Positions 3,963-25,969 of a stretch of 64,000 nt of DNA are shown here, piece after piece; position 1 is the first letter of the stretch; every line of letters starts with the position of its first letter. Source of the stretch: Erysipelotrichaceae bacterium (lineage in GTDB: Bacteria > Bacillota_I > Bacilli_A > Erysipelotrichales > Coprobacillaceae); assembly GCA_021201655.1 (NCBI GenBank), contig JAJQEL010000074.1, positions 7,029 through 71,028 of the forward strand, written 5' to 3'. The position numbers were made by a program, and so were the translations under genes. The notes under the pieces are model-generated. The model saw only the letters and a list, made by a program, of their open reading frames with translations. It was not told where the DNA came from and ran no database searches.

Positions 3963-5549
3963 CTATAAACTTGGAGTGTTACTAGAGCCATAGAAAGTAC
4001 TATAAAAATCACTCACCATACTCTTCATCGAACTTTCACTAATAGTGCCATTCACACGACATGCTAGCCAAACAACTTCCAAAATTGTTTCAACTGAACC
4101 TTCAGTCCAGCTGCCAACACCATCAGGATTAACATAAATACTATAATCATCTTCTATATAGGATAATAGTGCATTGCCACTACCATCTAAAAAGCCATGG
4201 AAATTGACACCATTAACCTTAACCATACCATAAACATCCCAATGGAAATCACTTTGTATTTTTTCTTTAATACTACTGCTAGCAACAATAATACACTTAT
4301 AGCTGCTACCACCTAAACCATCGGTCATCTTATAAGAAGTATTTCGATATTTATAACTACCAGAAACAGATTGAATATAATAATTATCTTTCAACGGATT
4401 AATATAATAACCATCGCTAGCATTATTTGTCACTCCCGCTTTACTCATACATTCTTTAAGCATAGTTCCACCAGTTTTAGCCACTGCCATACCACTACCA
4501 GAAGCATAAGTTCCTGAAGATGAATCAATTGACCATGTAGCACTATCGTCCCATTCACCTACATAAAGTGTGGTTCCACTACCACCACTGACTTTTGATA
4601 AAGCATTATCAACCCATGAACTATAACTACTTGCTTTACTAGTCGCATCGCCACCTAATACCTTACCAACTAAAGTAACAGCACTTTTGATATTACTAAT
4701 TGATGATAAGGAAGGTATTACAAAATAGGCTATATCATTTTCCTCTAAAGTAGCAATCTGCGATGAAGTAAAAGTTGATTGCCCTGATATTTCAATACAT
4801 ACATCAACATCAGCTGAAATCAAAGCATTAAAATTAGCGGATGATATGGCACTATCACCATCGCCACTCCACCATTGTTTAATACCTGATGTTGAAAAAA
4901 CACCACTAGCACTAGAAAAGAAACTTGCTGAAGTACCTGTTAATTTGCTTGTACCTCCTAGCATCGCTACAATAATCGCTGCTTCACCGACAGCTGTCAC
5001 ACTGTCTACATTTTCAACGATATCGACAGTTTTACCACGATCATCGACAACCTGTTTGTATGTTTCCCCGTCAGTAGGTTCAGTTGTTGAACCACCTTCA
5101 CTACCATCCTCAGCTTCACCATTTTGACCATCATCACTGTCCTCATCGCCTTCATCTTGACCATCGTCATTATCTGATGATTGATCGGCTGATTGATTGG
5201 AACCATTATTATTGTTATTGGTTTCATTTGATGATCCATCTGAAGCCGTTCCCATTGCATTAGCGGTATCTACATAAGTCGTATCATATGTTGTGTCACT
5301 ATCACTATTATCATCACCAGAGTATGCATCGTTTCTTGTTTGATCTTGTTTATTAGACGCATCATCTTCTTCTTTTTCTGGTGATAAATCTTCATCTTCA
5401 TCATCATTTTCTTCATCATTATCTGTGGATTGATTTTCTTCATCAATTTCGTTATTCTCTTCATAAACTATTTGTTGCAAGACAGGACTCTCCCTACAAC
5501 CTGATAATAGAAAACATAAAGCTATAAAACATATCATCAATTTTTTCAT
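3963..5549 (-). CDS. ABC substrate-binding lipoprotein (Peripla_BP_2-like) with long acidic linker
   Basis: Start moved to ATG 5549 (GAGG SD upstream). Signal peptide plus lipobox MKKLMICFIALCFLLSGC. An approx. 140-aa D/E/N/S-rich tract precedes the binding-protein core (VDDRGKTVDI...VTAVGEAAIIVAMLGG). Confidence 0.7.
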   Translation of the reverse strand: MKKLMICFIALCFLLSGCRESPVLQQIVYEENNEIDEENQSTDNDEENDDEDEDLSPEKEEDDASNKQDQTRNDAYSGDDNSDSDTTYDTTYVDTANAMGTASDGSSNETNNNNNGSNQSADQSSDNDDGQDEGDEDSDDGQNGEAEDGSEGGSTTEPTDGETYKQVVDDRGKTVDIVENVDSVTAVGEAAIIVAMLGGTSKLTGTSASFFSSASGVFSTSGIKQWWSGDGDSAISSANFNALISADVDVCIEISGQSTFTSSQIATLEENDIAYFVIPSLSSISNIKSAVTLVGKVLGGDATSKASSYSSWVDNALSKVSGGSGTTLYVGEWDDSATWSIDSSSGTYASGSGMAVAKTGGTMLKECMSKAGVTNNASDGYYINPLKDNYYIQSVSGSYKYRNTSYKMTDGLGGSSYKCIIVASSSIKEKIQSDFHWDVYGMVKVNGVNFHGFLDGSGNALLSYIEDDYSIYVNPDGVGSWTEGSVETILEVVWLACRVNGTISESSMKSMVSDFYSTFYGSSNTPSL

Positions 5550-5634
5550 ACTATTACCTCTTTCATTTAAAAAAAGCCCCATTGATAACATCAATCGGAC
5601 TTATACATAACGCAACACATTGATTTCAAATGCC

Positions 5635-5643
5635 ATTATATCA
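5635..5643 (-). promoter_or_regulatory. Candidate extended -10 promoter (TGaTATAAT) for the ABC importer operon
   Basis: The minus strand reads gctgTGaTATAATgg about 85 nt upstream of ATG 5549. The -35 element is weak. Confidence 0.3.
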
Positions 5644-5718
5644 CAGCACCAAATTTCACATAATTATTTTTTATAAAAAATATCATATTATGCATTTTTG
5701 TATAGTAGTTTAGATAAC

Positions 5719-5754
5719 AAAAAAAAGAATTGATGCCTTACAACAAGGCATCAA
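5719..5754 (-). terminator. Intrinsic terminator (ancestral terminator of the AAA+ gene, now separated from it by the insertion)
   Basis: Perfect 10-bp stem ttgatgcctt/aaggcatcaa with a 5-nt loop. On the minus strand it is followed by TTC plus T8. Confidence 0.6.
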
Positions 5755-5778
5755 TTTCTCTTAATATTTCCTGATTTC
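5734..5778. repeat. 45-bp direct repeat, copy A (left boundary of inserted islet)
   Basis: tgccttacaacaaggcatcaatttctcttaatatttcctgatttc is identical to 8929-8973 by base-by-base comparison. Confidence 0.9.
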
Positions 5779-5846
5779 ATAATTAAATTAGCAATTGATA
5801 TCCAAAATATTTGATATAATATCATTAACGATTGGAAGTAAGAGAA

Positions 5847-6191
5847 ATGAAAATAGATGATTTAAAGAAATATAACTTCCATGATAGTCTTTTAGAAAAA
5901 GTATTAGCAAATGAAAATGAAATTGTTCTCATTATAGATTTCTGTAAATGGCAACAATCTGATTACAATGAAATCACTGACAAAGAAACTTGCATGCTTA
6001 AACTAATTTTTCCAAATGCTACTTGCAGTACCCAACCATGGAAAATCAATGATGATGCAATCATATCAGTCGATTTTCAGACAATTCAAAATAAAACTCA
6101 AATTACATTTATTGTATATAATGATTTATGTGAAAATATAATTGACATAAAAATATGTGGAGAAGATGTTATATGTGAATTTGAATCATAA
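5847..6191 (+). CDS. Hypothetical small cytoplasmic protein (114 aa from ATG 5847)
   Basis: Open frame MKIDDLKKYNFHDSLLEKV. No recognisable motif. Convergent with the GmrSD-like gene and lies inside the islet. Confidence 0.45.
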   Translation: MKIDDLKKYNFHDSLLEKVLANENEIVLIIDFCKWQQSDYNEITDKETCMLKLIFPNATCSTQPWKINDDAIISVDFQTIQNKTQITFIVYNDLCENIIDIKICGEDVICEFES

Positions 6192-6245
6192 CTTTTCAGC
6201 AACTAAAATATTATATTAAGGAAAACTGATTTTAATATCAGTATT

Positions 6246-8636
6246 TTACAAATGATTTTTATACCAATCAATGATTTCATGTCGATTTGTTTCAGACCAT
6301 TGAGTTGTTATAAATATTTCTTTCCCTTTAAAAATCAAAGACTTTTTTCTGTATTTATATACTTTTCCATTTCCCTTATTAGCATCTCTATTGTCAGATA
6401 TAATTGGATATTCAATACGACTAAATAATTTTGCTGCATATTCTTTTGTTTTTAATAATTCCATTTCACTTTCAGAAATAACATTTTTTTCAATTAAATC
6501 ATCAAAAAACGAGAATGCTAGTTGACCAACTGGTGTATATTGGTAAGTTTCTTCATTACTTATGTCAAATTTAGGCTTATTAGATTTTTCTTGAACTAAA
6601 AATTTTATATCATCTGATTCAAATCTACATATTCTTGCTATAGTACGTATTGTAGCAAGCTTATCCTGACTGCTTAAATTTGTTTCAATATAGGCATTAT
6701 CACCAATCTTATAACCTCTTCTTAGTTTTTCGCTATTTTCTCCAAACCAATAATAATTTCCATTATAATAAACCGTTGGATCTAAGTAAAATATTCTCTC
6801 ATGTACAATTTTAAAAGCTGCTGTTATATCATTTGTTTTTATTACACTATCCAAAAATATTACTTGTGAAATTTTCTTATTTGTGACATCAATATCATCA
6901 TCCCAAGTCATCCATATATCATTATCAGTATTTAATTGACTGGAAATATCAGGAATCCACCATATACTTATGGCCTTATTAAACAAACATCTTGCTCTAT
7001 TTAAAATTTCATTTTCATTCCACACTTCACATTGCTGAATGTATTCATTAAGATAAAGCTTACTATAATTAAACCCCTTATTTGGCATAGTCTTTTTAGC
7101 ATTAAATGATGAATTACTATAATCACTATTATAGCCAGTTAACGTTAAATTCCCTATAGTATCTTTATATTTTGAATGTGTCAATTCCCAATTATCACCT
7201 AGCATTGACTTCCATTCGTTAGTTAACGTTTGAGGCATAATATGTTCAATTGTTAAAGTTCCATTATTAATTAATTCTTCAACTGCTACAATTTCCTTAT
7301 TGCCATAATTTTCTAATCTCTCCAACATATATTTCTTTATTGATGATTTGGCATTATACAAATCATAGACCATGAATTTATCCTCGAAATCATGATCATT
7401 TGGAAAGCGACTCCTTCCAGATTTTTTCATTATTTCATACTTAAAAGCATCATAATACGTCATGTTTTCATCTTCAATATCTCTGTCTATTTCTGCACCT
7501 AATTGCACGAATACTTTATTTAATGCATTAGCTGGTAAATCGCATATTTCTCTACGTGCAATATAATTTTCAATTATCTCAAAAGACAGTATCATTTCTG
7601 TTTCTGAAATATATCCATCAACATTAGCTTTAAATAAGTCCATTAATAGTGGAACACATGTTTTAACTTCTAATTTATTAATACGTGATAAAATATCTGA
7701 ATATGGTTTATGCGATTCTTTAGGGTTTTCAATAATTTTAAAATAATCTGCAAACTCTAGCATCTCTAAAATGATAGTTTCTATAGATTTCTTGGTAGTT
7801 TCTTTATAGTATTTAAATTCAAAATATAATTTCTTCTCATTCGACAATTTTCGCGTTTTTACCGCAAGATAGTATCGAATAAATCTATTCATCTCATTAC
7901 GTGAAACTGTTTTTTCTAATGGCTCCCAATATTTTTTATAAAATCTTTCTTGTTCATTTGCATCCATTCTCATAAGAACAAAATTCCTTATTTTATCGGC
8001 AGATTCTAGATCTAAACCCGTAGAATTTAAACTTTCGAAAATTAATTGTGGATCATCACCGCTTTGGGGTTCCAGACTTATACTTACAATTTCTAATTTT
8101 GTTACTGCATTATATAAACCCTCAATTTCACACTCACTCATATTAATTATTTCTTTATAGAAATAATTATAATTAGCAGTAATACTTGTGTTTTCAATAG
8201 GTATTTTATTTTCAATTAAATTATCATATGCTTCGTCATCTCCTTGGACCAATTTTAATTTTAATTTTTTTTCGTTATTCGAATATTCATCAGTTAAATA
8301 TGCTCCCGTTATCTTATCAGGATTGATGTTTATTTTTTTATCAGGATGTTCAATTACATAATTGCGTAAAGCTAGCAATAATAATGATACTGTTGTAATT
8401 CTCTGTTGTCCATCAATTATGGTATGTTCTTCACAAACACCATTATTGTTAGATACAAAGACTATAGACCCGAAGAAATGAGATGAATAATTAAAATTAT
8501 AAACATCTTTTAAATCTTTTAATAGCTGCGAACAGTTATCTTTTTTCCAGCTATAAGGCCTTTGATAAACTGGAATTATAAATTTCTTATCAGTACCTGC
8601 CATAAACCTTAAAATATTACTTGCATTTGCCTTCAT
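6246..8636 (-). CDS. GmrSD-like type IV restriction/nuclease protein (DUF262 N-terminal, DUF1524 HNH-like, plus approx. 230-aa C-terminal extension)
   Basis: DUF262 signatures IPVYQRPYSW and DGQQRITT. DUF1524 His-Me motifs TIEHIMPQT and GNLTLTGYNSDYSN. Confidence 0.85.
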   Translation of the reverse strand: MKANASNILRFMAGTDKKFIIPVYQRPYSWKKDNCSQLLKDLKDVYNFNYSSHFFGSIVFVSNNNGVCEEHTIIDGQQRITTVSLLLLALRNYVIEHPDKKININPDKITGAYLTDEYSNNEKKLKLKLVQGDDEAYDNLIENKIPIENTSITANYNYFYKEIINMSECEIEGLYNAVTKLEIVSISLEPQSGDDPQLIFESLNSTGLDLESADKIRNFVLMRMDANEQERFYKKYWEPLEKTVSRNEMNRFIRYYLAVKTRKLSNEKKLYFEFKYYKETTKKSIETIILEMLEFADYFKIIENPKESHKPYSDILSRINKLEVKTCVPLLMDLFKANVDGYISETEMILSFEIIENYIARREICDLPANALNKVFVQLGAEIDRDIEDENMTYYDAFKYEIMKKSGRSRFPNDHDFEDKFMVYDLYNAKSSIKKYMLERLENYGNKEIVAVEELINNGTLTIEHIMPQTLTNEWKSMLGDNWELTHSKYKDTIGNLTLTGYNSDYSNSSFNAKKTMPNKGFNYSKLYLNEYIQQCEVWNENEILNRARCLFNKAISIWWIPDISSQLNTDNDIWMTWDDDIDVTNKKISQVIFLDSVIKTNDITAAFKIVHERIFYLDPTVYYNGNYYWFGENSEKLRRGYKIGDNAYIETNLSSQDKLATIRTIARICRFESDDIKFLVQEKSNKPKFDISNEETYQYTPVGQLAFSFFDDLIEKNVISESEMELLKTKEYAAKLFSRIEYPIISDNRDANKGNGKVYKYRKKSLIFKGKEIFITTQWSETNRHEIIDWYKNHL

Positions 8637-8892
8637 CTGTTTATTACTCTCCTTAATTTAATTTCAATAAAATTCAAAATTTGTATAATTATATCATATA
8701 AAATATATATTTTCATCTCAATTTATCACCATTTTCCAATCTAATCTTTAATTGTTTCTTTCTATTTGCTTTTTTATTTTTAGTCAATTTTTTTATCTAA
8801 AGAGGAATAGTATTATTTTAAAAAACATTGTATTTTATTTTGAATTATAGTTCAACATTACAAACCTAGTTCAGAAGATTATACTATAACTC

Positions 8893-8923
8893 AAAAAGTC
8901 AGTATTGAGTAATCAATACTGAC
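8893..8923 (-). terminator. Intrinsic terminator now serving the AAA+ gene 8933-10399 (islet-encoded)
   Basis: Perfect 11-bp stem gtcagtattga/tcaatactgac with a 4-nt loop, followed by T5 on the minus strand. Confidence 0.7.
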
Positions 8924-8928
8924 CATTT

Positions 8929-8973
8929 TGCCTTACAACAAGGCATCAATTTCTCTTAATATTTCCTGATTTC
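8929..8973. repeat. 45-bp direct repeat, copy B (contains stop codon and last 12 codons of the AAA+ gene)
   Basis: Identical to 5734-5778. Encodes ...NQEILREIDALL* on the minus strand. Confidence 0.9.
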
Positions 8974-10399
8974 TTTCATAAAATAGTAAATCTTTATTAT
9001 ATTTAAAATATGATTCACTACCATATATGCTGATATATCTTGCACACACACTAGATGAAGTTAATTCAGTAATTACCAATAGTATTTCCTGTTCTCCAAG
9101 AGCTATTTCTAAAAAATGAAAGATGTTTTCTAATTGATTGGAAGTTTTATTAGAAAAGATTTGTAGTTGTTGAATTGAACGATTGATATATTCTTTACCT
9201 ACTTCAAAGTGTTTTGATGCGTCTATATCTTGGATAAGTGATAATATTTCTTCAAGATATTGTTTTAAAGAGGCATACGCATCTTGGTCATTTTCTGATA
9301 ATAGTTCACGTTGATTAGCAGATAAACTCATATTGATGTTATTGATTTTTTCTTCAATGGAATCCATAATAGATGATGATTGAATGATTTTCTTGGCTTC
9401 GACAATTGTCTGTCTTCTATCTAATACTTGTTTCATGTCTTGCTTTTCTTTATCTAATAACAAACCAATAAGACTAATCCTTTCATCAAACGAAGCCTTT
9501 TGAGCACGTTCAATGATATCTTTACTAACTTGTCCTGCCAAAATATCATCAACCTTATAATCACTTTGATATTTCTTCCATAATTCAAAATAAACAGAGA
9601 ATTGATGAGCAATCTTTTCATCTCTTAAATATTGCTTTATGAGTAATTCGTCGATTTCAATATGATTTAATTCATAGAGTTTCATCATAATAGATAAATC
9701 ACTCCATCCTCTTGGTGTCACAAAACTACGTCCATCGATCGTATTTTCTACTTTATAGAATTGATCATTTCTGATATCTAAATAACTTAAGATACATGGA
9801 TGAATATCTTCATTAATAGCCCAATTTTTCCAAACACTATAATCTGGTTCAATATCAATACGTTTTAAACGATCTTCAGTCACCATATCAAATTCTCTGA
9901 CCGATTGATTATATTGTGGCGGATTCCCTGCCGTAACAACTATCCAACCTTCTGGTATGCGATGCTGGCCAAATACTTTATATTGGAGAAATTGGAGCAT
10001 GGAAGGAGCTAAAGTTTCAGAAACACAATTGATCTCATCTAAAAATAAGATACCTTCTCTGATGCCAGTTTCTTTCATTTTGTGATAAATTGAAGCAATA
10101 ATTTCACTCATGGTATATTCACTAGCACGATATGTTTGTCCATCGAATTCTTCTTCTTGAATATAAGGTAAACCTAAAGCTGATTGTCTGGTATGATGCG
10201 TAATGGAATAACTCACTAGACCAATATGTAATTCTTGGGCTATTTGTTCAATAATAGCTGTTTTACCAATACCTGGTGCTCCTACTAAAAACAATGGTCT
10301 TTGTTTATGTAAGGGTATAAGATAACGTCCATATTCATTTTTCGTGCGATAAGCAATAATTGCATTTTTTATTTGATCTTTTGCTTCATTAATATTCAT
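8933..10399 (-). CDS. AAA_5 (MoxR/CbbQ-like) AAA+ ATPase with helical C-terminal domain, module 1
   Basis: Walker A GAPGIGKT, Walker B ILFLDEIN, sensor-1 region VTAGNP, then DRLKRI. 66 of the first 80 residues are identical to the paralog at 23209-24663 (manual count). Confidence 0.85.
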   Translation of the reverse strand: MNINEAKDQIKNAIIAYRTKNEYGRYLIPLHKQRPLFLVGAPGIGKTAIIEQIAQELHIGLVSYSITHHTRQSALGLPYIQEEEFDGQTYRASEYTMSEIIASIYHKMKETGIREGILFLDEINCVSETLAPSMLQFLQYKVFGQHRIPEGWIVVTAGNPPQYNQSVREFDMVTEDRLKRIDIEPDYSVWKNWAINEDIHPCILSYLDIRNDQFYKVENTIDGRSFVTPRGWSDLSIMMKLYELNHIEIDELLIKQYLRDEKIAHQFSVYFELWKKYQSDYKVDDILAGQVSKDIIERAQKASFDERISLIGLLLDKEKQDMKQVLDRRQTIVEAKKIIQSSSIMDSIEEKINNINMSLSANQRELLSENDQDAYASLKQYLEEILSLIQDIDASKHFEVGKEYINRSIQQLQIFSNKTSNQLENIFHFLEIALGEQEILLVITELTSSSVCARYISIYGSESYFKYNKDLLFYERNQEILREIDALL

Positions 10400-10408
10400 A
10401 CTTTCTCC

Positions 10409-10981
10409 TTATAATATTTCTAAATCTTCTTTTTCTACGACAATCTGTAATGCCCATGGTGGTATTTTCGCATAATAGGCACTTTCATAATTGATAAATA
10501 CAAACGCTGTTAAATAAGATGGAACACGCTTAGGATATATACCTAAACCATCTGTAAAATAAAGCATACCTTTTAATTGATGAAATACATTGTCTTGAAT
10601 TAATTCGTCAACATAATCAAAAGCTGGTCGAAAATCAGTACCACCAAATCCCTTTAAAGTAAGCTTTGATAAATAGATATCTAATTCTCTTTGATTGGTA
10701 ATAACTTCATCGTGTTTGATTTGACTATCACATTGAATCAAATGTAAATTAAATTGTTTATCAAATGCTTCTTGTTGTTTTAAGATATTCCATGTTTTTT
10801 GTAAAAATAATTGTACCATATCTCCTTGAACGGAACCTGATGTATCAATAACAATCACAAAATCACGAATCTTCTTATCTTCACGATATTCCAATGGTTC
10901 TATTAATGGTGTATCTTTATAAAGCTCCAAACCATAAGTATAATAAATATAATCAAATTCATCCAATGATGTATGCATCAC
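10409..10981 (-). CDS. VWA-domain protein (DUF2201-type), C-terminal half of a split gene, module 1
   Basis: MIDAS motif VIVIDTSGSV, then GGTDFRP. Collinear with residues approx. 280-469 of the fused paralog 21855-23240. Confidence 0.8.
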   Translation of the reverse strand: MMHTSLDEFDYIYYTYGLELYKDTPLIEPLEYREDKKIRDFVIVIDTSGSVQGDMVQLFLQKTWNILKQQEAFDKQFNLHLIQCDSQIKHDEVITNQRELDIYLSKLTLKGFGGTDFRPAFDYVDELIQDNVFHQLKGMLYFTDGLGIYPKRVPSYLTAFVFINYESAYYAKIPPWALQIVVEKEDLEIL

Positions 10982-11775
10982 TTCTGATCTGCTCGCAAAT
11001 TTTTTAAAAACTCACGATAATCCACATGTTCACGATGTAATTCTAATAAAGCTCTCGTCAAATCACCAGATCTTTCACCTTGTTGTTTAGAAAAAGTTTG
11101 AAGTTGACTATCCATATCTTCACTTATATGTTTCCATAATGCTTTTAAATTTTCTGGATTGCCTGATGCTCCTTCTGTTTCATCACTACTTTCATAAACT
11201 TGACCTTTGGATGCTTTTTTCTTAGCTTTAACAATGCCTTTTTGATAATCATCATTATACCATAATTGATGATTATCAAAATGAAACAATTGTTTCCATT
11301 CTCCTAGTAAATCAGGATGAATAGGATAATCCATTAAATAACGATATATTTTTTCGGCTGTATAGATTTTCACTTTTAATTTAGATAATTCCTGCTTACG
11401 CAGTGAATCCAAAGGATCATTTTGAATAATATTGAGATCAATAATCATCGCTTCACTCGCCATATCACAAGCTAAATCCCACATCTCCTGATTAATGGAA
11501 TGATCTACAAACATATGCATAAATAGACAATGCATCAAAGGATGTAAAAAGCATCTTAAAGCATAGTTTTGATCTTGTTGATAAGATTGTAATACTAACA
11601 TTGACTGATAATAAAGATATTTCCCATCAGTGGCGATATAATTAGATTGGTGACTTTGCAGTTGTAATTGCCATAAGGCTTTATCTAAAAATCTCAGATT
11701 TAAAAGTATTTGGGTTTTACCCATATTAAGTATTTTTAGCGCTAGTTTATTGATTTTATCTGTATTGTCTACCAT
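10978..11775 (-). CDS. DUF2201_N-like putative metallopeptidase-fold protein, N-terminal half of the split gene, module 1
   Basis: FLHPLMHCLFMH followed by WDLACDMASE. Collinear with the N-terminal half of the fused paralog. Its stop overlaps the start of the VWA ORF (GTGATG). Confidence 0.7.
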   Translation of the reverse strand: MVDNTDKINKLALKILNMGKTQILLNLRFLDKALWQLQLQSHQSNYIATDGKYLYYQSMLVLQSYQQDQNYALRCFLHPLMHCLFMHMFVDHSINQEMWDLACDMASEAMIIDLNIIQNDPLDSLRKQELSKLKVKIYTAEKIYRYLMDYPIHPDLLGEWKQLFHFDNHQLWYNDDYQKGIVKAKKKASKGQVYESSDETEGASGNPENLKALWKHISEDMDSQLQTFSKQQGERSGDLTRALLELHREHVDYREFLKNLRADQK

Positions 11776-13742
11776 GATAATAAATCATCCTCTTGATTGA
11801 ATTTTGATTGATATTCTAATAATATAGCTATATTTTCCTGATGAGCATGTTTAATTGATGCTTCTAATAATATAGAAACATCTTCCTTAGTTAAACGTTC
11901 TAAATAAGGAAAAGCTTTAAGCTTGCCTTCTTTAATCAGTTCAAAGTATAACACATCATCCATGATATCTATCATTTCATTGAGTTCTCTTATTCGATAA
12001 GATGAATTAAGGAGTTCTCCTAACTTATAATTATCATCTTTAGGATAAATATCCATAATATTTTTGCCATGAAAAGATAACTTAAGATGTTCTTGAGGGT
12101 TACCAATAATATAAAAGTTTCTTTGAATGAGCTGTTGTAATTTGGGCATTGACATAGAAATATTTAAGTAACGATTTTTCCAATGAATATAATCATCAGG
12201 ATCATATTTTTGATTGAGTTGTTTTAATTGTGGAAAACATGAATCTAGAAGTAGTGGCTGATATGATCTTAAGGTTTGGCTATCAATGAGTGCACTATGA
12301 GCTATGGAAACAAATTGTTCATTATTAAAGTTCATAGGATTATTGTGAGCATCTTTGAGATGATCATCCTGGATGATAAAATATTGATTGTCACATTGCC
12401 ACAAGAGTGTTGAAGCAATATTCCTTAAGGTGAGACAACCCATGGTTTCTTTATACCAGGGAATAAAACGGGTTGCTTTGCCACTTAAGTAATCTTCGTA
12501 GAGCTTTTGTTTATAGATTTCTTGAATAATACTTAATTGTTGGGTATTATTTTTTTCTTCTAAGGACATGGTTATTTGAATAAATAGGGCATTTTCCTGT
12601 TTACCACGCATCGAAGCATATTGGGCTAATAATTGATGAGACAGAGCATAAACAGCAGCTTCTTCGTTGTCATTTAATAATATCGCTTTATTCAATGTTT
12701 CCAAACATAACAGACCGTCACGATTATAGATATCATATTGTTGCCAATGAATAGATTCTTCAATGATATGATTGAGCTGTAAAACAGAAGCATATCTTAA
12801 ATAAGGTATAAGCCTACGAGGATAATGCATATCTAAGTTATCTAAGGCTATTTGTAGTGATTCTTTATCTAGTTGACTTGCGACTTCATCAGCTGCTGTG
12901 TCTTTTTTAAAATAAGGTGGCTGACTATCAAATACTGACCATTGTGATATATACTTATATAGTATAAATTTTAATGCTTCCACAGGAGCAACTTTATCTT
13001 TTTCACGATATAGGACTTCTTTAAAAGTTGTGATATTTTCCTGTTCCATGGTTTGACGTATTTGTGATTGTGAGGCAAAGCGATTGATGTAACGAAGTAG
13101 TTTTTTATCACGTTCATCAAATTGTTGATGAGTGAGTCCTTCTTCTACTTCTATATGATCGATAAGTTTCTTTTGCTTATGAGTTAATGGCATAGTACGA
13201 ATATAAGAAATATATTGTTGTAAAGTAATTGTATCTTTAATGAGATGTCTTTTTCGACACATGAGAAAGATATCAATGATGCTTTTGTTTTCGCATAGTT
13301 CATTGAGATATTGAGGTAGCATGTCTAATATATATTGTTGATATTGATCTTGTAATTGTTGAGAGTAGCGATTTTCATATTCAGGATGTAATATGTAACC
13401 ACATGCCAAAATACGTTTTTCTATTTCAGATTGGTTTTGAAAAGGACGATATGGAGTACATATGTATTGAATGGTATTGATTGGTGGTAAGATGCGCATC
13501 AGTGGTGATTGATAAGGAATGGATGATAGCCAAATGATTTGTACATTATTATGGATATGATCAAAAGCATAAGATGCTATTTTTTTAACATGAGAACCAA
13601 TTGTTATTTTAGATAAATTGAGGCAATGACTAAAGGCACCCTCCCCAATTTCTTCCACTGATTCACCAATCATAACTTCATCAATCGATAAGTCATGACG
13701 ATAAGTATATGGTTTGACGTTTTCATTTATTTCTAGTTTCAT
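11769..13742 (-). CDS. Cytoplasmic BspA-type LRR protein with DUF4132-like central region and ankyrin-like C-terminus, module 1
   Basis: LRR_5-like ESVEEIGEGAFSHCLNLSKITIGSHVKKIASYAF with no signal peptide. Residues approx. 380-600 look DUF4132-like (LLWQCDNQYFIIQDD...VSIAHSALI...CFPQLKQL). C-terminal motif ILLEASIKHAHQENIAILLEYQ. Confidence 0.7.
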   Translation of the reverse strand: MKLEINENVKPYTYRHDLSIDEVMIGESVEEIGEGAFSHCLNLSKITIGSHVKKIASYAFDHIHNNVQIIWLSSIPYQSPLMRILPPINTIQYICTPYRPFQNQSEIEKRILACGYILHPEYENRYSQQLQDQYQQYILDMLPQYLNELCENKSIIDIFLMCRKRHLIKDTITLQQYISYIRTMPLTHKQKKLIDHIEVEEGLTHQQFDERDKKLLRYINRFASQSQIRQTMEQENITTFKEVLYREKDKVAPVEALKFILYKYISQWSVFDSQPPYFKKDTAADEVASQLDKESLQIALDNLDMHYPRRLIPYLRYASVLQLNHIIEESIHWQQYDIYNRDGLLCLETLNKAILLNDNEEAAVYALSHQLLAQYASMRGKQENALFIQITMSLEEKNNTQQLSIIQEIYKQKLYEDYLSGKATRFIPWYKETMGCLTLRNIASTLLWQCDNQYFIIQDDHLKDAHNNPMNFNNEQFVSIAHSALIDSQTLRSYQPLLLDSCFPQLKQLNQKYDPDDYIHWKNRYLNISMSMPKLQQLIQRNFYIIGNPQEHLKLSFHGKNIMDIYPKDDNYKLGELLNSSYRIRELNEMIDIMDDVLYFELIKEGKLKAFPYLERLTKEDVSILLEASIKHAHQENIAILLEYQSKFNQEDDLLSW

Positions 13743-16222: not shown

Positions 16223-18526
16223 TTATTTAATTTTACCCATTGCTTTAAGAATCTTTTGAGGTGTACATGGATATTCTGTCATTTCCACACCAATAGCATT
16301 ACTTACAGCCATTAAAATAGAGGCAGGTGCTGGTGATGGAGAAATTTCACCAAAACCTAAAGCATGGAAAGATTCACTATCCCATTCACTTTCTAAGAAT
16401 ACAGTATCAAATTGAGGGAAATTATTAAATGTACGCCATTTATAATCAATCATATTACCATTCATAAAACGACCTAATTTTTTATCAAGAATCATTTCTT
16501 CAAATAAACCAGTATCACCACCAGCTGAACCAAATGAACCTTCAGCCTGCATACGTAAATTAATTGGATCAATGATTTGTCCGACATCAGAACCTTCAAT
16601 AGCTCTAATCAATTTGGCTTCGCCAGTTTCAAGATTGACACATACTTCTGATAAATATAAGGCAAAGTTTGGTTTATCAAAGTTTTGTACATAATTATAT
16701 TTTCCTTGAATCGTCATTTCTGGACCAGTTACTGCAATCCAAGGGATATGCATTTGTGGATCTTTCTTATGGATAACCATAAAATCTTCGGTATCCAAAT
16801 CTTCAACATTCGCATTGAATTTAACAGCTGCCATTTCTAACAATTGGCGACGAGCATCTTTTGCTGCATTAACGGCTGTTGTTCCCATTGTAATCGTACC
16901 ACGAGAACCAATCATACCAGCATCATAACCTGTACCATGCGTATCAGCATCAACCACTTGAACACCATCCAATGGACATTTCAATACTTCAGCTACCATC
17001 TTTTGTACAGCTAAACGCTGTCCGCCACCAGTCTCACCTATACAAATCACAACTGTCACATTACCTGTCGCATGAAGTTTCACAATACCTTCTGTTGGAT
17101 CTTCACCGATATCAGCATTACCATGAACACCAACACCAACACCAATCGCATAACGACCATCTTTACTCACCCAGGTAGGCTTTTCCCAGCCTTTCCATTT
17201 ATCTTTCCAACCAAATGCTTTTGCTGTTTCATCAAAAGCTTTACGATAATCAACAGAATGAACATCCCACCATATATTATCACGCCAGATATAACGATCT
17301 CCAGCTCGTACAAAGTTTTCTCTAAACACTTCTAATGGATCCATATTGGCTTCTCTAATGGCGGTACAAACCATAGGTACTAATACGGATTTACATTCCT
17401 GGCCACCAAAACCACGTATAGGAGCTTGAGATGAATGGTTTGTCGCTACTAATTTCGTATCCAATGCCCAGTTTTTACATTTTCCTAAGAAGGCCTGACA
17501 TTCTCCTAAACCAACAGCTGTCATCGCTTGTGCATAAGTAGAAGACATACCAGAGTCAGTATACCACATACCTTCGACAGCATTAATAATACCATCCTCA
17601 GTCATACCAATTTTACCACGAATACGACTACCTTGACGCAGTTCATAGCTTAACATATGTTCATTTCGACTCATCATAAATTTACAAGGACGACCAGTAA
17701 TCTTACTCATCAACACAGCTTGTAAAATCATATGGGGAATCAATTGCTTAGAGCCATAAGAATCACCAGCCTGCACAGCAATAACACGCACAGCCACACC
17801 TGGAATAGATGCTTCAGTATTAAACTTTTGAATATGTGGTGCCCCACCATCATACCAAACTGTCACAGCATGATTACTTGTCCATTCAGCGATACATCCA
17901 GGACTTTCAGGTGGTAATGGATGCGCCATATTATCATATTTCATATAGCTTTCTTTCACATATTTACTTTCTTTGAATCCCTTTTCTACATCACCAACAA
18001 AGATATCATTAAAAGGTACCTCTGAAAAAGGTGTCACCTTAACAATTTCATTATGCGGATATTCTTCATATAATTGAGGAGCCCCATCTTCTAACGCTTC
18101 TTCACAATCCAATACAAAAGGTAAAACTTCATATTCAACCTTAATTAAATCTAACGCCTCATCTGCAGCTTCTAATGTTTCAGCAGCCACCAAAGCTACA
18201 GAATCGCCTGTAAAACGCACATGTTGATCGAGTACACGACGATGTTGTGGTAAACCACATTTCCAATCAGGTGCATCCTTATAAGTTGCTACGCCAATAA
18301 CACCTGGAACATTTTTGGCATCTTCTACGTCAATACTAGTAATCATCGCATTTGGATAAGGTGATCTCAAAACACGAACAATCAACATATCAGGTTTATA
18401 AATATCATCAATAAATTGTCTCTTTCCACTTACTAACTCATCAGCTTCAGCTCGATTTGCATGTTTACCAATATAACGATATTCATGTTCACTAACCTTA
18501 ACTTGTTCTTTCATTTTATCATACAT
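16223..18526 (-). CDS. Molybdopterin-binding large subunit of a xanthine dehydrogenase/aldehyde oxidase-family hydroxylase
   Basis: Size and sequence match XdhA/CoxL-type subunits (GKRQFIDDI..., GGFGGQ-like RGFGGQE, GQRLAVQKM). Start placed at ATG 18526, after the GGAGG SD. Confidence 0.85.
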   Translation of the reverse strand: MYDKMKEQVKVSEHEYRYIGKHANRAEADELVSGKRQFIDDIYKPDMLIVRVLRSPYPNAMITSIDVEDAKNVPGVIGVATYKDAPDWKCGLPQHRRVLDQHVRFTGDSVALVAAETLEAADEALDLIKVEYEVLPFVLDCEEALEDGAPQLYEEYPHNEIVKVTPFSEVPFNDIFVGDVEKGFKESKYVKESYMKYDNMAHPLPPESPGCIAEWTSNHAVTVWYDGGAPHIQKFNTEASIPGVAVRVIAVQAGDSYGSKQLIPHMILQAVLMSKITGRPCKFMMSRNEHMLSYELRQGSRIRGKIGMTEDGIINAVEGMWYTDSGMSSTYAQAMTAVGLGECQAFLGKCKNWALDTKLVATNHSSQAPIRGFGGQECKSVLVPMVCTAIREANMDPLEVFRENFVRAGDRYIWRDNIWWDVHSVDYRKAFDETAKAFGWKDKWKGWEKPTWVSKDGRYAIGVGVGVHGNADIGEDPTEGIVKLHATGNVTVVICIGETGGGQRLAVQKMVAEVLKCPLDGVQVVDADTHGTGYDAGMIGSRGTITMGTTAVNAAKDARRQLLEMAAVKFNANVEDLDTEDFMVIHKKDPQMHIPWIAVTGPEMTIQGKYNYVQNFDKPNFALYLSEVCVNLETGEAKLIRAIEGSDVGQIIDPINLRMQAEGSFGSAGGDTGLFEEMILDKKLGRFMNGNMIDYKWRTFNNFPQFDTVFLESEWDSESFHALGFGEISPSPAPASILMAVSNAIGVEMTEYPCTPQKILKAMGKIK

Positions 18527-21854: not shown

Positions 21855-23240
21855 ATGAACGGTGAGGAACTCGCTTTAGAAATTATCAATCTTTCTAGAA
21901 ATACCCTTATGATTCATTATCGTTTTTTAGATAAAGCCATTTATCAATTGGAACTATCTATGGATCCTACCACAACTTTGGCAACTGATGGTTTTTATTA
22001 TTATTATAATCCTGCTCATGTTTTAAAAGTCTATAGTATGTCTCAATCAAGACTGATTCATGATTATTATCATACTTTACTTCATTGCATCTTTCATCAT
22101 CCCTTTGTGGAGAATATTGATACATTGGTTTGGGATTTAGCCTGTGATATTGCGATTGAAGCATGCATCCAATCAATGAATGATGATTTAGTAAAAATAA
22201 AATTAGATGTCCATGCCCAAATGATCCTCAACGATTTACAAAAAGAACTCAAACAACTAAGTGCTGAAAAAATATATCGTTATTTTAAAAATCAACATTT
22301 AGATGATGAAACCTTACTCACTTATCGTGATTATTTTAAAGTCGATGAACATGAATGCTGGTATGAACATACCAAGCAAAATGATAATCAACAACAAAGT
22401 GATGATTTAGATAAAGAAAGTCAAAACAATCAAAATAGTCAATCATCATCAAATAATGATAATCAAGGTGATACGCCACAAAATCAGGAAGGTGAATCCA
22501 TCAAAAAGCAGTGGCAACAAATATCCCAAAGTATGCAAACAGATTTAGAAACCTTATCTAAAGATTACGCAACTAAGTCAGGGACATTATCATTACAATT
22601 AAGTATCACCAACCATACTAAAACAAGTTATCATGATTTTTTAAGTCAATTTATGGTATTCAATGAAGAAATAACGATTAATGATGAAGAATTTGATTAT
22701 ATATATTATACATATGGATTAAAACTCTATGAGAATATACCGCTTATAGAACCATTAGAATATAAAGAAGATAAAAAGATTCAAGATTTAGTTATTGCGA
22801 TTGACACATCAGCATCGGTCAAAGAAAAAGTCATTCAAAAGCTTATTAATGAAACTTATGATATTCTTCTTTCTAAAGAAAGCTTTTTTCATCATTTTAA
22901 TTTATATTTGATACAATGTGATAGTCAAATCCAGGATGTTACGGTTATTCATCAATATGAAGAATTAGAAAATTATCAACTTACTATGAAAGGTTTTGGT
23001 GGGACGGATTTTAGACCAGTTTTTGAGTATATTGAAAATTTACAAGCCAATCATGAGCTGACTCAATTAAAAGGATTGATTTACTTAACCGATGGTGAAG
23101 GTATATATCCGCAAAAACAACCACCATATAAAGTAGCTTTTCTCATGTTTGATCAAAATATAGAAGTACCTGTGTGGGCAATAAAAATGATATTAGAGGA
23201 GGACGATTATGAATATCCAAGAAGCGAAAGATCAAATTAA
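21855..23240 (+). CDS. DUF2201-type protein: metallopeptidase-like N-domain fused to VWA domain, module 2
   Basis: Start at ATG 21855, after the AGGAGGA SD. YYHTLLHCIFHH, WDLACDIAIE, MIDAS motif VIAIDTSASV, GGTDFRP. Confidence 0.8.
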   Translation: MNGEELALEIINLSRNTLMIHYRFLDKAIYQLELSMDPTTTLATDGFYYYYNPAHVLKVYSMSQSRLIHDYYHTLLHCIFHHPFVENIDTLVWDLACDIAIEACIQSMNDDLVKIKLDVHAQMILNDLQKELKQLSAEKIYRYFKNQHLDDETLLTYRDYFKVDEHECWYEHTKQNDNQQQSDDLDKESQNNQNSQSSSNNDNQGDTPQNQEGESIKKQWQQISQSMQTDLETLSKDYATKSGTLSLQLSITNHTKTSYHDFLSQFMVFNEEITINDEEFDYIYYTYGLKLYENIPLIEPLEYKEDKKIQDLVIAIDTSASVKEKVIQKLINETYDILLSKESFFHHFNLYLIQCDSQIQDVTVIHQYEELENYQLTMKGFGGTDFRPVFEYIENLQANHELTQLKGLIYLTDGEGIYPQKQPPYKVAFLMFDQNIEVPVWAIKMILEEDDYEYPRSERSN

Positions 23241-24663
23241 ACAAGCCATGATAGCTTATTTTTCTAAGGATGAATACGGACAATATATGATTCCTTTGCA
23301 TAAACAAAGACCAATATTTCTCATTGGTGCTCCTGGTATTGGTAAAACAGCCATTATGGAACAAATTGCCCAGGAATTAAATGTTGGTTTAGTAAGCTAT
23401 TCTATGACTCATCATACCAGACAATCAGCTTTAGGTTTACCTTATATTGTTGAAAAGAATTATCAGGATGTTTCTTATCAGGTATCAGAGTATACGATGT
23501 CAGAGATTATTTCATCTATTTATGATTATATGAAAAATACCAATCATCAAGAAGGCATCTTATTTTTAGATGAAATTAATTGTGTATCAGAAACCTTAGC
23601 TCCTTCCATGTTACAGTTTTTACAATATAAGATTTTTGGTAGACACCAAGTTCCTGAAGGATGGATTGTGGTAACTGCAGGAAATCCTCCAGAATATAAT
23701 AAGTCAGTTAAGGAATTTGATATTGTGACGATGGATAGATTGAAATGCATCCATGTAGAACCTGATTATCAAGTATGGAAACAATACGCCCTGTCGCACA
23801 ATATGCATCCTGCTGTTTTATCTTATTTAGATAGTAAAAAGGATTATTTTTATAGAGTTGAAACAAGTGTTGAAGGAAAGATTTTTGTCACGGCTAGAGG
23901 CTGGGAAGATTTATCGACGATGATGAAACTTTATGAACAGAATGATTTACCTATTAATATTGATTTGATCATTCAATATTTACAACATCCTAAAATTGCC
24001 AGAGATTTTGCCTCTTATTATGATTTATTTATGAAATATCAATCACAATATGATATTGTAGATATTTTACAAGGAAATGTTGATGATAAAATCAAACAAC
24101 AAGCCACGCATGCACGTTTTGATGAACGTTTAGCATTACTTAGCTTATTGATTGATCATGTAACATCACAAATGAAAGATATTCAAATCAAACAAAATGC
24201 CTTATTGAAGATTATGGAACAACTCAAAAAAGATCACTCATCTGAATCTTTACAGCAATATCTTAATCAAAACAACGATTTAATGGCTACACATAAAAAA
24301 TATCACAACTTAGCATCGCAGGAAATAAGTGAAATATCTATGATTAATACATTTTTTAGTGAACATCTTCATGATGATTGTCCAACGACAAAACAGGCAT
24401 TTGGATTACAAGTCAATACTATCAAAACACAAATCGCTGATATGCAAAACCAATTAGAAAATTTATTTAATTTTGTCGAAGAAGTATTTCAAGATGGTCA
24501 AGAATTACTTATATTAGTTACTGAATTAACACTCAATCCTTATTCAGCATCTTTTATATCACAAAATGGTTGTCCTCAATATTTCAAACATAATAAGGAA
24601 TTACTATTCTATGAAAGAAACAAAGAAATTATTACAAAATTAGAAGAATTAAACGATAACTAA
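23209..24663 (+). CDS. AAA_5 (MoxR/CbbQ-like) AAA+ ATPase, module 2
   Basis: GAPGIGKT, ILFLDEIN, VTAGNP. GAGGAGGA SD upstream. Overlaps the end of the VWA gene by 32 nt. Confidence 0.85.
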   Translation: MNIQEAKDQIKQAMIAYFSKDEYGQYMIPLHKQRPIFLIGAPGIGKTAIMEQIAQELNVGLVSYSMTHHTRQSALGLPYIVEKNYQDVSYQVSEYTMSEIISSIYDYMKNTNHQEGILFLDEINCVSETLAPSMLQFLQYKIFGRHQVPEGWIVVTAGNPPEYNKSVKEFDIVTMDRLKCIHVEPDYQVWKQYALSHNMHPAVLSYLDSKKDYFYRVETSVEGKIFVTARGWEDLSTMMKLYEQNDLPINIDLIIQYLQHPKIARDFASYYDLFMKYQSQYDIVDILQGNVDDKIKQQATHARFDERLALLSLLIDHVTSQMKDIQIKQNALLKIMEQLKKDHSSESLQQYLNQNNDLMATHKKYHNLASQEISEISMINTFFSEHLHDDCPTTKQAFGLQVNTIKTQIADMQNQLENLFNFVEEVFQDGQELLILVTELTLNPYSASFISQNGCPQYFKHNKELLFYERNKEIITKLEELNDN

Positions 24664-25875: not shown

Positions 25876-25969
25876 TGATATATAGCCAAAAAGATCATCA
25901 GATTGGGTGATCTTTTTTTGCATATTTCCTAATGAAAAACATTTAATTTTCAATCATGTAATTGTCTCA

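Follow-up and report, generated by a model that had tools for sequence, protein, structure and literature searches.

A compact foreign cassette of two conflict genes is inserted in the genome of an Erysipelotrichaceae bacterium (GCA_021201655.1; 2,637,503 bp in 120 contigs), with the stop region of a MoxR-like AAA+ ATPase gene on one side and the 3′ arm of the corresponding terminator hairpin on the other. The cassette, referred to below as the islet, carries a GmrSD-family type IV restriction enzyme gene and a small open reading frame (ORF), ORF114, and is bounded by two identical 45-bp direct repeats, one of which forms the present 3′ end of the AAA+ gene. All positions refer to the window, i.e. 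the 64,000-nt stretch analysed here (contig C83:7029–71028), unless another genome is named; the features are compiled in Table 1.

Direct repeats and the split terminator

The 45-mer TGCCTTACAACAAGGCATCAATTTCTCTTAATATTTCCTGATTTC occurs on both sides of the islet, the copies being 3195 bp apart and free of mismatches, and a match of this kind was found in none of 100 dinucleotide-preserving shuffles. When the complete genome sequence of 2,637,503 bp was searched with a tolerance of up to 3 mismatches, only these two copies were retrieved, and sub-segments of the 45-mer as well as both islet ends likewise have no further copy in the genome. The 45-mer is not a generic repeat. Copy B comprises two thirds of an Arg codon, the 12 codons for NQEILREIDALL, the stop codon and the nucleotides GGCA. 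A longer homology, suggested by a reported match of 61 nt with 90% identity, was discarded, as just 10 of the additional 16 nt match; local alignment of the left end of the islet with the gene or the flank was no better than that of shuffled sequences.

The 5′ arm and the loop of the native terminator of the AAA+ operon lie within repeat copy A. RNA folding of this terminator gave −19.9 kcal/mol (z −4.4), and the orthologous hairpins in the same-genus genome G002 and at locus L037 fold intact. At copy B, only the inner stem with 7 pairs is left, and the stretch formed by copy B and the hairpin of the islet folds at −26.7 kcal/mol. The insertion point thus splits the 3′ arm of the native hairpin, and a replacement terminator is supplied by the insert. 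These data uphold the first-pass annotation of the locus, which had noted the identity of the repeats, the last 12 codons and stop codon of the AAA+ gene in copy B, a full terminator hairpin at copy A as opposed to an inner stem at copy B (13 and 7 pairs by our count), and the entry of a unit into the terminator arm together with a terminator of its own (the 12-pair hairpin at 8897–8924).

Empty sites in related genomes

Uninterrupted counterparts of the insertion site, which the first-pass annotation had proposed to look for, were found in two related genomes. Genome G002 is collinear with window positions 25900–8929, with 88% identity over 17 kb, and its positions 18304–18394 correspond to 5778–5680 of the window, continuing directly into the sequence to the left of copy A. 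Base-by-base reading places the AAA+ stop codon of G002 within an uninterrupted terminator hairpin of 17 pairs, after which GTAATCTAAACTACTATA follows. The same uninterrupted arrangement is present in GCA_965328645.1, the AAA+ protein of which is 90% identical (amino acid identities of the orthologues in the two genomes are 90–91%). At both empty sites, the AAA+ stop codon runs straight into ...TCAATTTCTTTTTTGTAATCTAAACTACTATA, equivalent to window positions 5733 to 5700. In the relatives the gene end adjoins the hairpin arm and spacer without interruption, so that the lineage of this genome has gained the 3,150 bp at 5779–8928 together with one repeat copy by insertion; the relatives have the repeat sequence in single copy and without the insert. 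The insertion is probably recent, because the two copies are identical at 45 of 45 positions as compared to 4 (G002) and 3 (L037) differences between the window 45-mer and its orthologues in the two relatives.

A more distant locus (L041), where the AAA+ protein is 64% identical, shows the gene order AAA+, binding protein, two FecCD permeases, ABC ATPase and MoxR. As this order is kept there, the adjacency of the importer to the AAA+ gene must be old, and together with the two empty sites it bears out the ancestral succession of AAA+ gene, terminator, spacer and importer that had been proposed from the window.

The slot that separates the AAA+ gene from the importer holds a 115-amino-acid helix-turn-helix (HTH)-like ORF at L040:9550–9900 and L041:9567–9914 (AAA+ 64% identical), and in G002 the sequence differs past about 50 nt after the terminator, where different genes are located. 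The slot is variable in several lineages. The idea that ORF114 is the ancestral gene of the slot was rejected, since the 115-amino-acid ORF of L040 and L041 is unrelated to it and gave no BLASTP match.

Composition of the islet and absence of mobility functions

Both the low G+C content (26.3% in the islet versus 31.2%) and the remoteness of the GmrSD relatives within the bacterial family indicate that the islet is foreign. The interval contains only two real ORFs, the GmrSD gene and ORF114, neither of which codes for a recombinase, in line with the cargo listed in the first-pass annotation. Neither a tyrosine nor a serine recombinase gene was found in the 72-kb contig, while the approximately 14 tyrosine recombinases and the one serine recombinase (a resolvase) of the genome are all encoded on other contigs.

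The view that 45 bp is too long for the target-site duplication of a transposition event is shared by us: the islet lacks a transposase gene, its termini are no more complementary to each other than shuffled sequences (963 of 2000 scored as well), and transposons generate short duplications of 2–15 bp. Likewise, the best ungapped match of the repeat to the B. subtilis dif 28-mer covers 13–15 of 28 positions against a background mean of 14.4; as there is no dif-like site in the repeat, the islet does not qualify as an IMEX (Xer-dependent element). No Rfam family matched within 5300–9200. Islet DNA was not detected elsewhere in the genome, in PLSDB plasmids, in IMG/VR or in JGI metagenomes; the INPHARED phages yielded no islet match, only one irrelevant match of 150 nt, and among the GTDB genomes only the empty site of G002 was matched. 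Very few genomes of this lineage exist, which defines the scope of the searches for related elements.

Table 1. Features of the islet, its insertion site and the neighbouring genes (window coordinates)
Feature	Position	Strand	Description	Basis
Direct repeat copy A	5734..5778		Orphan duplicate of the final 41 nt of the AAA+ gene and the 4 nt that follow; contiguous with native terminator arm and spacer	
Direct repeat copy B	8929..8973		Supplies the AAA+ gene with its functional 3′ end (NQEILREIDALL, stop, GGCA)	
Inserted foreign DNA	5779..8928		3,150 bp, 26.3% G+C	Two related genomes lack it at this site
Native intrinsic terminator of the AAA+ operon	5719..5756	−	13-pair hairpin 5756–5728, then T8 tract (CTTTTTTTT)	Terminator scan
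Intrinsic terminator of the islet	8897..8924	−	12-pair hairpin and T-run; begins 5 nt past copy B	Terminator scan and fold
GmrSD-family type IV restriction enzyme	6246..8636	−	796 amino acids	Pfam
ORF114	5847..6191	+	114 amino acids, beta-rich	
Promoter-like site for ORF114	5795..5822	+	TTGATA-16-TAATAT	Consensus scan, pattern match only
Promoter-like sites for GmrSD	8688..8721	−	TTGAGA-17-TATGAT and TG-extended TATAAT	Consensus scan, pattern match only
Leucine-rich repeat (LRR)/DUF4132 protein	13742–11769	−		
DUF2201_N gene	11775–10978	−		
VWA/DUF2201 gene	10981–10409	−		
MoxR-like AAA+ ATPase	8933..10399	−	Last gene of the LRR/DUF2201_N/VWA/AAA+ module; its tail is the insertion target	Pfam
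Binding-lipoprotein gene	3963..5549	−	Signal/lipobox start; first gene of a FecCD-type ABC importer operon	

Possible modes of insertion

Formally, the locus may be described either as a 3,195-bp circle bearing one 45-mer that became integrated, or as a 3,150-bp fragment whose entry was accompanied by a 45-bp target duplication. The account to which we give most weight, at a little under an even chance, is a single crossover of a circular cassette with the gene tail, brought about by a recombinase in trans or by host recombination and comparable to the formation of a cis-mobilizable element (CIME). The circular cassette would have contained the 45-bp gene tail once and recombined with its identical counterpart on the chromosome in one reciprocal (Campbell-type) crossover, upon which the cassette-borne 45-mer and the cassette terminator would have restored the end of the AAA+ gene. 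The crossover enzyme would be located off the islet, as a recombinase supplied in trans or as host homologous recombination acting on the 45-bp identity, and the islet would behave as a CIME-type element, i.e. flanked by attachment (att) sites, devoid of an integrase and consisting of cargo only. Both ends of the cassette are tight, the terminator lying 5 nt and the promoter-like site 16 nt from the respective edge, and the succession of a gene-joined repeat copy and a replacement terminator fits the layout typical of elements that enter the 3′ ends of genes.

CIMEs, the closest described kind, are elements which have kept attL and attR while their integration and transfer genes have been lost (PMC5704250). 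With CIMEs such as those related to ICESt1/ICESt3 that occupy the fda 3′ end in Streptococcus thermophilus (PMC5704250, citing Pavlovic et al. 2004), the islet shares att-like repeats that include a gene 3′ end, a content of cargo without integrase or transfer genes, and a gene end restored by the repeat. It differs from them in that no related intact integrative and conjugative element (ICE) or integrative and mobilizable element (IME) is known at its site, and in having neither a decay remnant nor an accretion partner nor a demonstrated recombinase; moreover, its target is a lineage-specific MoxR-like AAA+ tail with a terminator hairpin.

Several observations weigh against the single crossover. 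Searches of the genome, of three congeners and of the JGI, plasmid, phage and viral collections retrieved neither an intact element nor a remnant or a second att copy, and none of the collections searched contained a circular or excised form or a second cassette locus. The non-coding DNA of the islet amounts to just 414 bp in total, so that there is no room for the remnant of an integrase gene. The target tail is lineage-specific and fast-evolving and not the same in sister species; a copy brought in by an element and matching at 45 of 45 positions would therefore require a donor of the same species, whereas duplication in situ gives identity automatically. The edges of the repeat are sharp, the agreement at 10 of the next 16 nt being about what is expected by chance in AT-rich DNA.

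Nearly as likely as the single crossover, and in our estimate a possible though distinctly less than even prospect, is an illegitimate insertion that happened once: a stalled fork or a break at the terminator hairpin would have been repaired by capture of a foreign fragment, with duplication of 45 bp of the target, leaving a fixed, non-mobile islet. It could have proceeded through staggered nicks 45 nt apart followed by fill-in, or through microhomology-mediated template switching out and back. The identity at 45 of 45 positions and the sharp edges follow from duplication in situ, one of the breakpoints lies within a strong hairpin, and inspection by eye revealed a possible microhomology of 4–8 nt (GAAA / TTATGAAA) at the distal junction. 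The absence of a recombinase, of an att-like site elsewhere and of another islet copy in the genome, as well as of the cassette at any other locus in the collections searched, is in agreement with such an event. However, both ends of the insert are trimmed to functional units (terminator and promoter), which is unexpected for a random fragment, and a 45-bp duplication is outside the usual range of fill-in.

Allelic transfer from a relative that already had a GmrSD gene downstream of the AAA+ gene would make the islet terminator and the next 150 nt or so the donor's own terminator and spacer; one end of the fragment would have recombined with the homologous AAA+ tail, and the other would have been joined illegitimately. 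We consider it unlikely. Positions 8865–8812 do align weakly with the native spacer (5661–5720), the pieces shared between 8812–8865 and 5661–5720 being TTTGTAAT..AACTA..CAAAAT..ATGTTTTTTA; scores as high are reached by only 36 of 2000 shuffles and by 1% of the AT-rich segments of the genome (p ~0.01–0.02). The variability of the slot between AAA+ gene and importer, with its 115-amino-acid HTH-like ORF in L040 and L041 and the different genes past about 50 nt in G002, is also compatible with exchange at this position. Nevertheless, the spacer similarity is marginal and was picked post hoc among four comparisons, MAFFT favours another register, and a linear replacement leaves both tails only if the right join fell 45 bp inside the recipient gene. 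A donor-like locus was not found, and the close GmrSD relatives reside in unrelated contexts.

An assembly artefact, in which an empty site and a free 3.2-kb circle with the 45-mer were threaded through the repeat by the assembler, is highly improbable. Three Logan contigs (SRR15221317, SRR15221320 and SRR15221321) reproduce pieces of the locus, but they were built at k=31, at which both states have the same k-mers because the repeat of 45 bp exceeds k−1; we discarded these contigs as independent proof of integration, since they are uninformative at this k. On the other hand, the circle would carry no replication gene, most assemblers finish at k≥55 and thus span a 45-bp repeat, and the contig runs through both copies over 72 kb. 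A circle bearing a host gene tail would, besides, itself amount to an excised integrating element. No more credible is an ancestral islet that both relatives lost by precise recombination between the repeats. Inter-repeat deletion would give exactly the empty site observed, but zero differences between the copies contrast with 3–4 of 45 between species and about 12% overall, the G+C content is foreign, the family and order contain few or no relatives of GmrSD and ORF114, and two independent losses would be required.

That single-gene GmrSD-type cassettes constitute a class of recombinase-free mobile defence units, which use gene tails and terminator hairpins as sites and leave long perfect host duplications, with the present islet as one instance, seems quite improbable to us. 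Members of such a class might move by host recombination or repair, or by an activity of the cassette itself, rather than by a known integrase or transposase; nothing at this locus supports self-mobilization. On present evidence, the islet is an ordinary member of the att-flanked, integrase-less islets.

The GmrSD restriction enzyme

The larger islet gene codes for a protein with a DUF262/GmrS domain at residues 16–220 (PF03235, 1.2e-35) and a DUF1524/GmrD His-Me nuclease domain at residues 412–553 (PF07510, 3.4e-27), which also matches the PADLOC Orf5 and HEC-06 models. The family motifs (I/V)(I/V)DGQQR(L)TT, (E/D)HxxPQ, (G/A)NLxL...N and NxxFxxKK (Machnicka et al., PMC4619093) are represented by IIDGQQRITT, (T)IEHIMPQ, (I)GNLTL(TGY)N and NSSFNAKK, respectively; the N-terminal motif sequence TIIDGQQRITTVSLL fits the first of them. 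The gene is complete, with all family motifs. Eco94GmrSD (PMC4437046) and BrxU (PMC8565348) catalyze the nucleoside triphosphate (NTP)-dependent cutting of DNA containing 5-methylcytosine (5mC), 5-hydroxymethylcytosine (5hmC) or glucosyl-5hmC. As a family member, the islet nuclease would be predicted to cut phage DNA with modified cytosines.

Within the bacterial family, the best relative of the protein is 39% identical, and 399 scored genomes of the class contained a single match (50%). The closest relatives anywhere, with amino acid identities of 73–74%, are found in other organisms, adjoining large serine recombinases, Mrr-like enzymes and methyltransferases. Similarity to these relatives at the DNA level starts at the start codon and stops at about the stop codon; because the DNA homology is confined to the ORF, the gene is taken to travel as a gene-sized module between contexts.

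With other GmrSD enzymes the islet protein thus has in common the DUF262 plus DUF1524 architecture and all four motifs, and with many of them a mobile or defence context. In contrast to enzymes of the size of BrxU, however, it possesses a C-terminal extension of about 240 amino acids, and it is distant from the solved structures (E ~1e-5 over the N-domain). The extension (residues 556–796, window 6249–6971, minus strand) is conserved across the subfamily, with 28 invariant columns in an alignment of 15 sequences, and its AlphaFold model has a predicted local distance difference test (pLDDT) score of 86. The sole suggestive fold match of the extension is the hemimethylated-DNA-binding C-domain of SeqA (1iu3_C; probability 0.92, E = 1), with a TM-score of 0.58 on the target and a root-mean-square deviation of 1.9 Å over 89 columns; one member of the GmrSD subfamily shows a weak Pfam match to SeqA. 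As a lead, the extension may be a reader domain for modified DNA; judged from the model, it does not appear to be recombinase-like.

A variant of the gene occurs in a Logan contig (L029, from SRR15221320). An in-frame deletion corresponding to window positions 7661–8252 removes about 196 amino acids (residues ~126–321), with the last part of the DUF262 domain and the linker, and joins NNEKKL to EVKTCVPLL at an AAATTA microhomology. It probably represents a loss-of-function defence allele in a related population.

In genome G280 (L049, G280:C2:48000–67900), a GmrSD homologue with 50% identity and a 328-amino-acid ORF lie directly behind a tRNA-Thr(GGT) gene (8643–12667), but they were rejected as a parallel case. 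They are flanked by 28-nt repeats that include the CCA end and a hairpin arm; this 28-mer is dispersed at 8 or more sites of the genome in the manner of a generic terminator-like repeat and is not an att duplication. Many clusters of GmrSD homologues are known only from contigs of about 3 kb. These are at most an ambiguous sign of mobility, because of the two examined (one of them a low-coverage fragment, 3.4x) neither has enough flanking sequence to reveal the boundaries of a cassette.

The small protein ORF114

ORF114 has no match in Pfam, PHROGs, NCBIfam or PADLOC. An exhaustive HMMER search identified about 90 related proteins of 110–120 amino acids at E≤1e-3, the alignment of which yields the signature FHDSLLE...IDFCxWxQ...ET. 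Weak matches of family members to known families comprise DUF6258 (4 of 40 members, best E 1.3e-4) and Imm50 (1 member, E 0.054). The AlphaFold model of ORF114 (pLDDT 96) has its best fold match in the PDB with the immunity protein PIM7 (8owu_D/E; E 9e-3, TM-score 0.46–0.51, Foldseek probability 1.0). With moderate confidence, based on model and family matches, we assign ORF114 as an immunity-like protein, which by family membership would be predicted to neutralize a toxin. With PIM7 of Bacillus cereus (8owu), Imm50 and DUF6258 it shares the size of about 114 amino acids and a similar beta-rich fold, besides the weak sequence matches of some family members. Unlike immunity proteins of polymorphic toxin systems, however, it has no adjacent toxin, the islet being free of a toxin gene, but stands beside a restriction enzyme, and it shows no Pfam match above threshold.

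Among 200 other genomes of the order, the ORF114 family was found in one. This lone further locus (L048, G067:C178, 27–3296) is a run of small ORFs on the same strand (168, 149, 74, 114, 87 and 284 amino acids) without Pfam match, a layout typical of immunity-gene arrays. A comparable convergent small ORF was not present at the inspected loci of the GmrSD relatives; ORF114 is therefore not a conserved partner of GmrSD.

Expression of the cassette and its neighbours

The promoter-like site assigned to ORF114 starts 16 bp inside the islet. The GmrSD gene and ORF114 point towards each other and share a weak hairpin in the gap that separates them. With a putative promoter for each gene and a terminator of its own, the cassette would be transcriptionally self-contained. 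Transcripts of the AAA+ operon would now end at the islet hairpin, and the native terminator would still stop minus-strand read-through before it reaches the importer promoter. With the AAA+ transcript ended by the islet hairpin and the importer shielded by the native terminator, the insertion is predicted to be transcriptionally neutral for both neighbours.

Neighbouring genes and a cassette array outside the window

The binding-lipoprotein gene is the native downstream neighbour of the insertion site and is followed by two FecCD permease genes; the same binding protein heads the importer operon in the Logan contig L042. The window contains a paralogous MoxR-like AAA+ gene at 22686–24637 (plus strand), in mirror orientation and with about 69–73% DNA identity to 8933–10399, the 3′ end of which is 84% identical to window positions 8957–9011. 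It was rejected as the source of the 45-mer, as only 17 nt overlap the repeat.

Outside the window, at G000:C8:23100–28100 (within L043, C8:22500–29000), a repeat of about 200 bp is present four times; the copies are 72–82% identical to each other and include a perfect match of 77 bp between 23443–23519 and 24532–24608. Each copy ends in a tRNA-T-arm-like sequence, ...GCAGGTTCGAATCCTGTCATGGACGC, and then a T-run. The repeats bracket a HEPN and nucleotidyltransferase gene pair, a 95-amino-acid ORF, and a gene for a 592-amino-acid protein with AAA-ATPase_like and PDDEXK_9 domains. Neither ARAGORN nor Rfam gave a match for the repeats of this locus, and its contig is devoid of recombinase genes. 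The region looks like a tandem array of integrase-less cassettes beside parA/parB.

Implications

The locus provides an example, exact to the base pair and documented by empty sites, of how an anti-phage gene was added without a linked mobility gene and with its neighbours undisturbed. If it is true that an enzyme acting in trans recombines the 45-bp copies, the islet, with its 3.2 kb and two genes, would be a small and tractable substrate for finding that enzyme. Islets of this kind probably account for a large and under-annotated share of the turnover of defence genes in gut Firmicutes.

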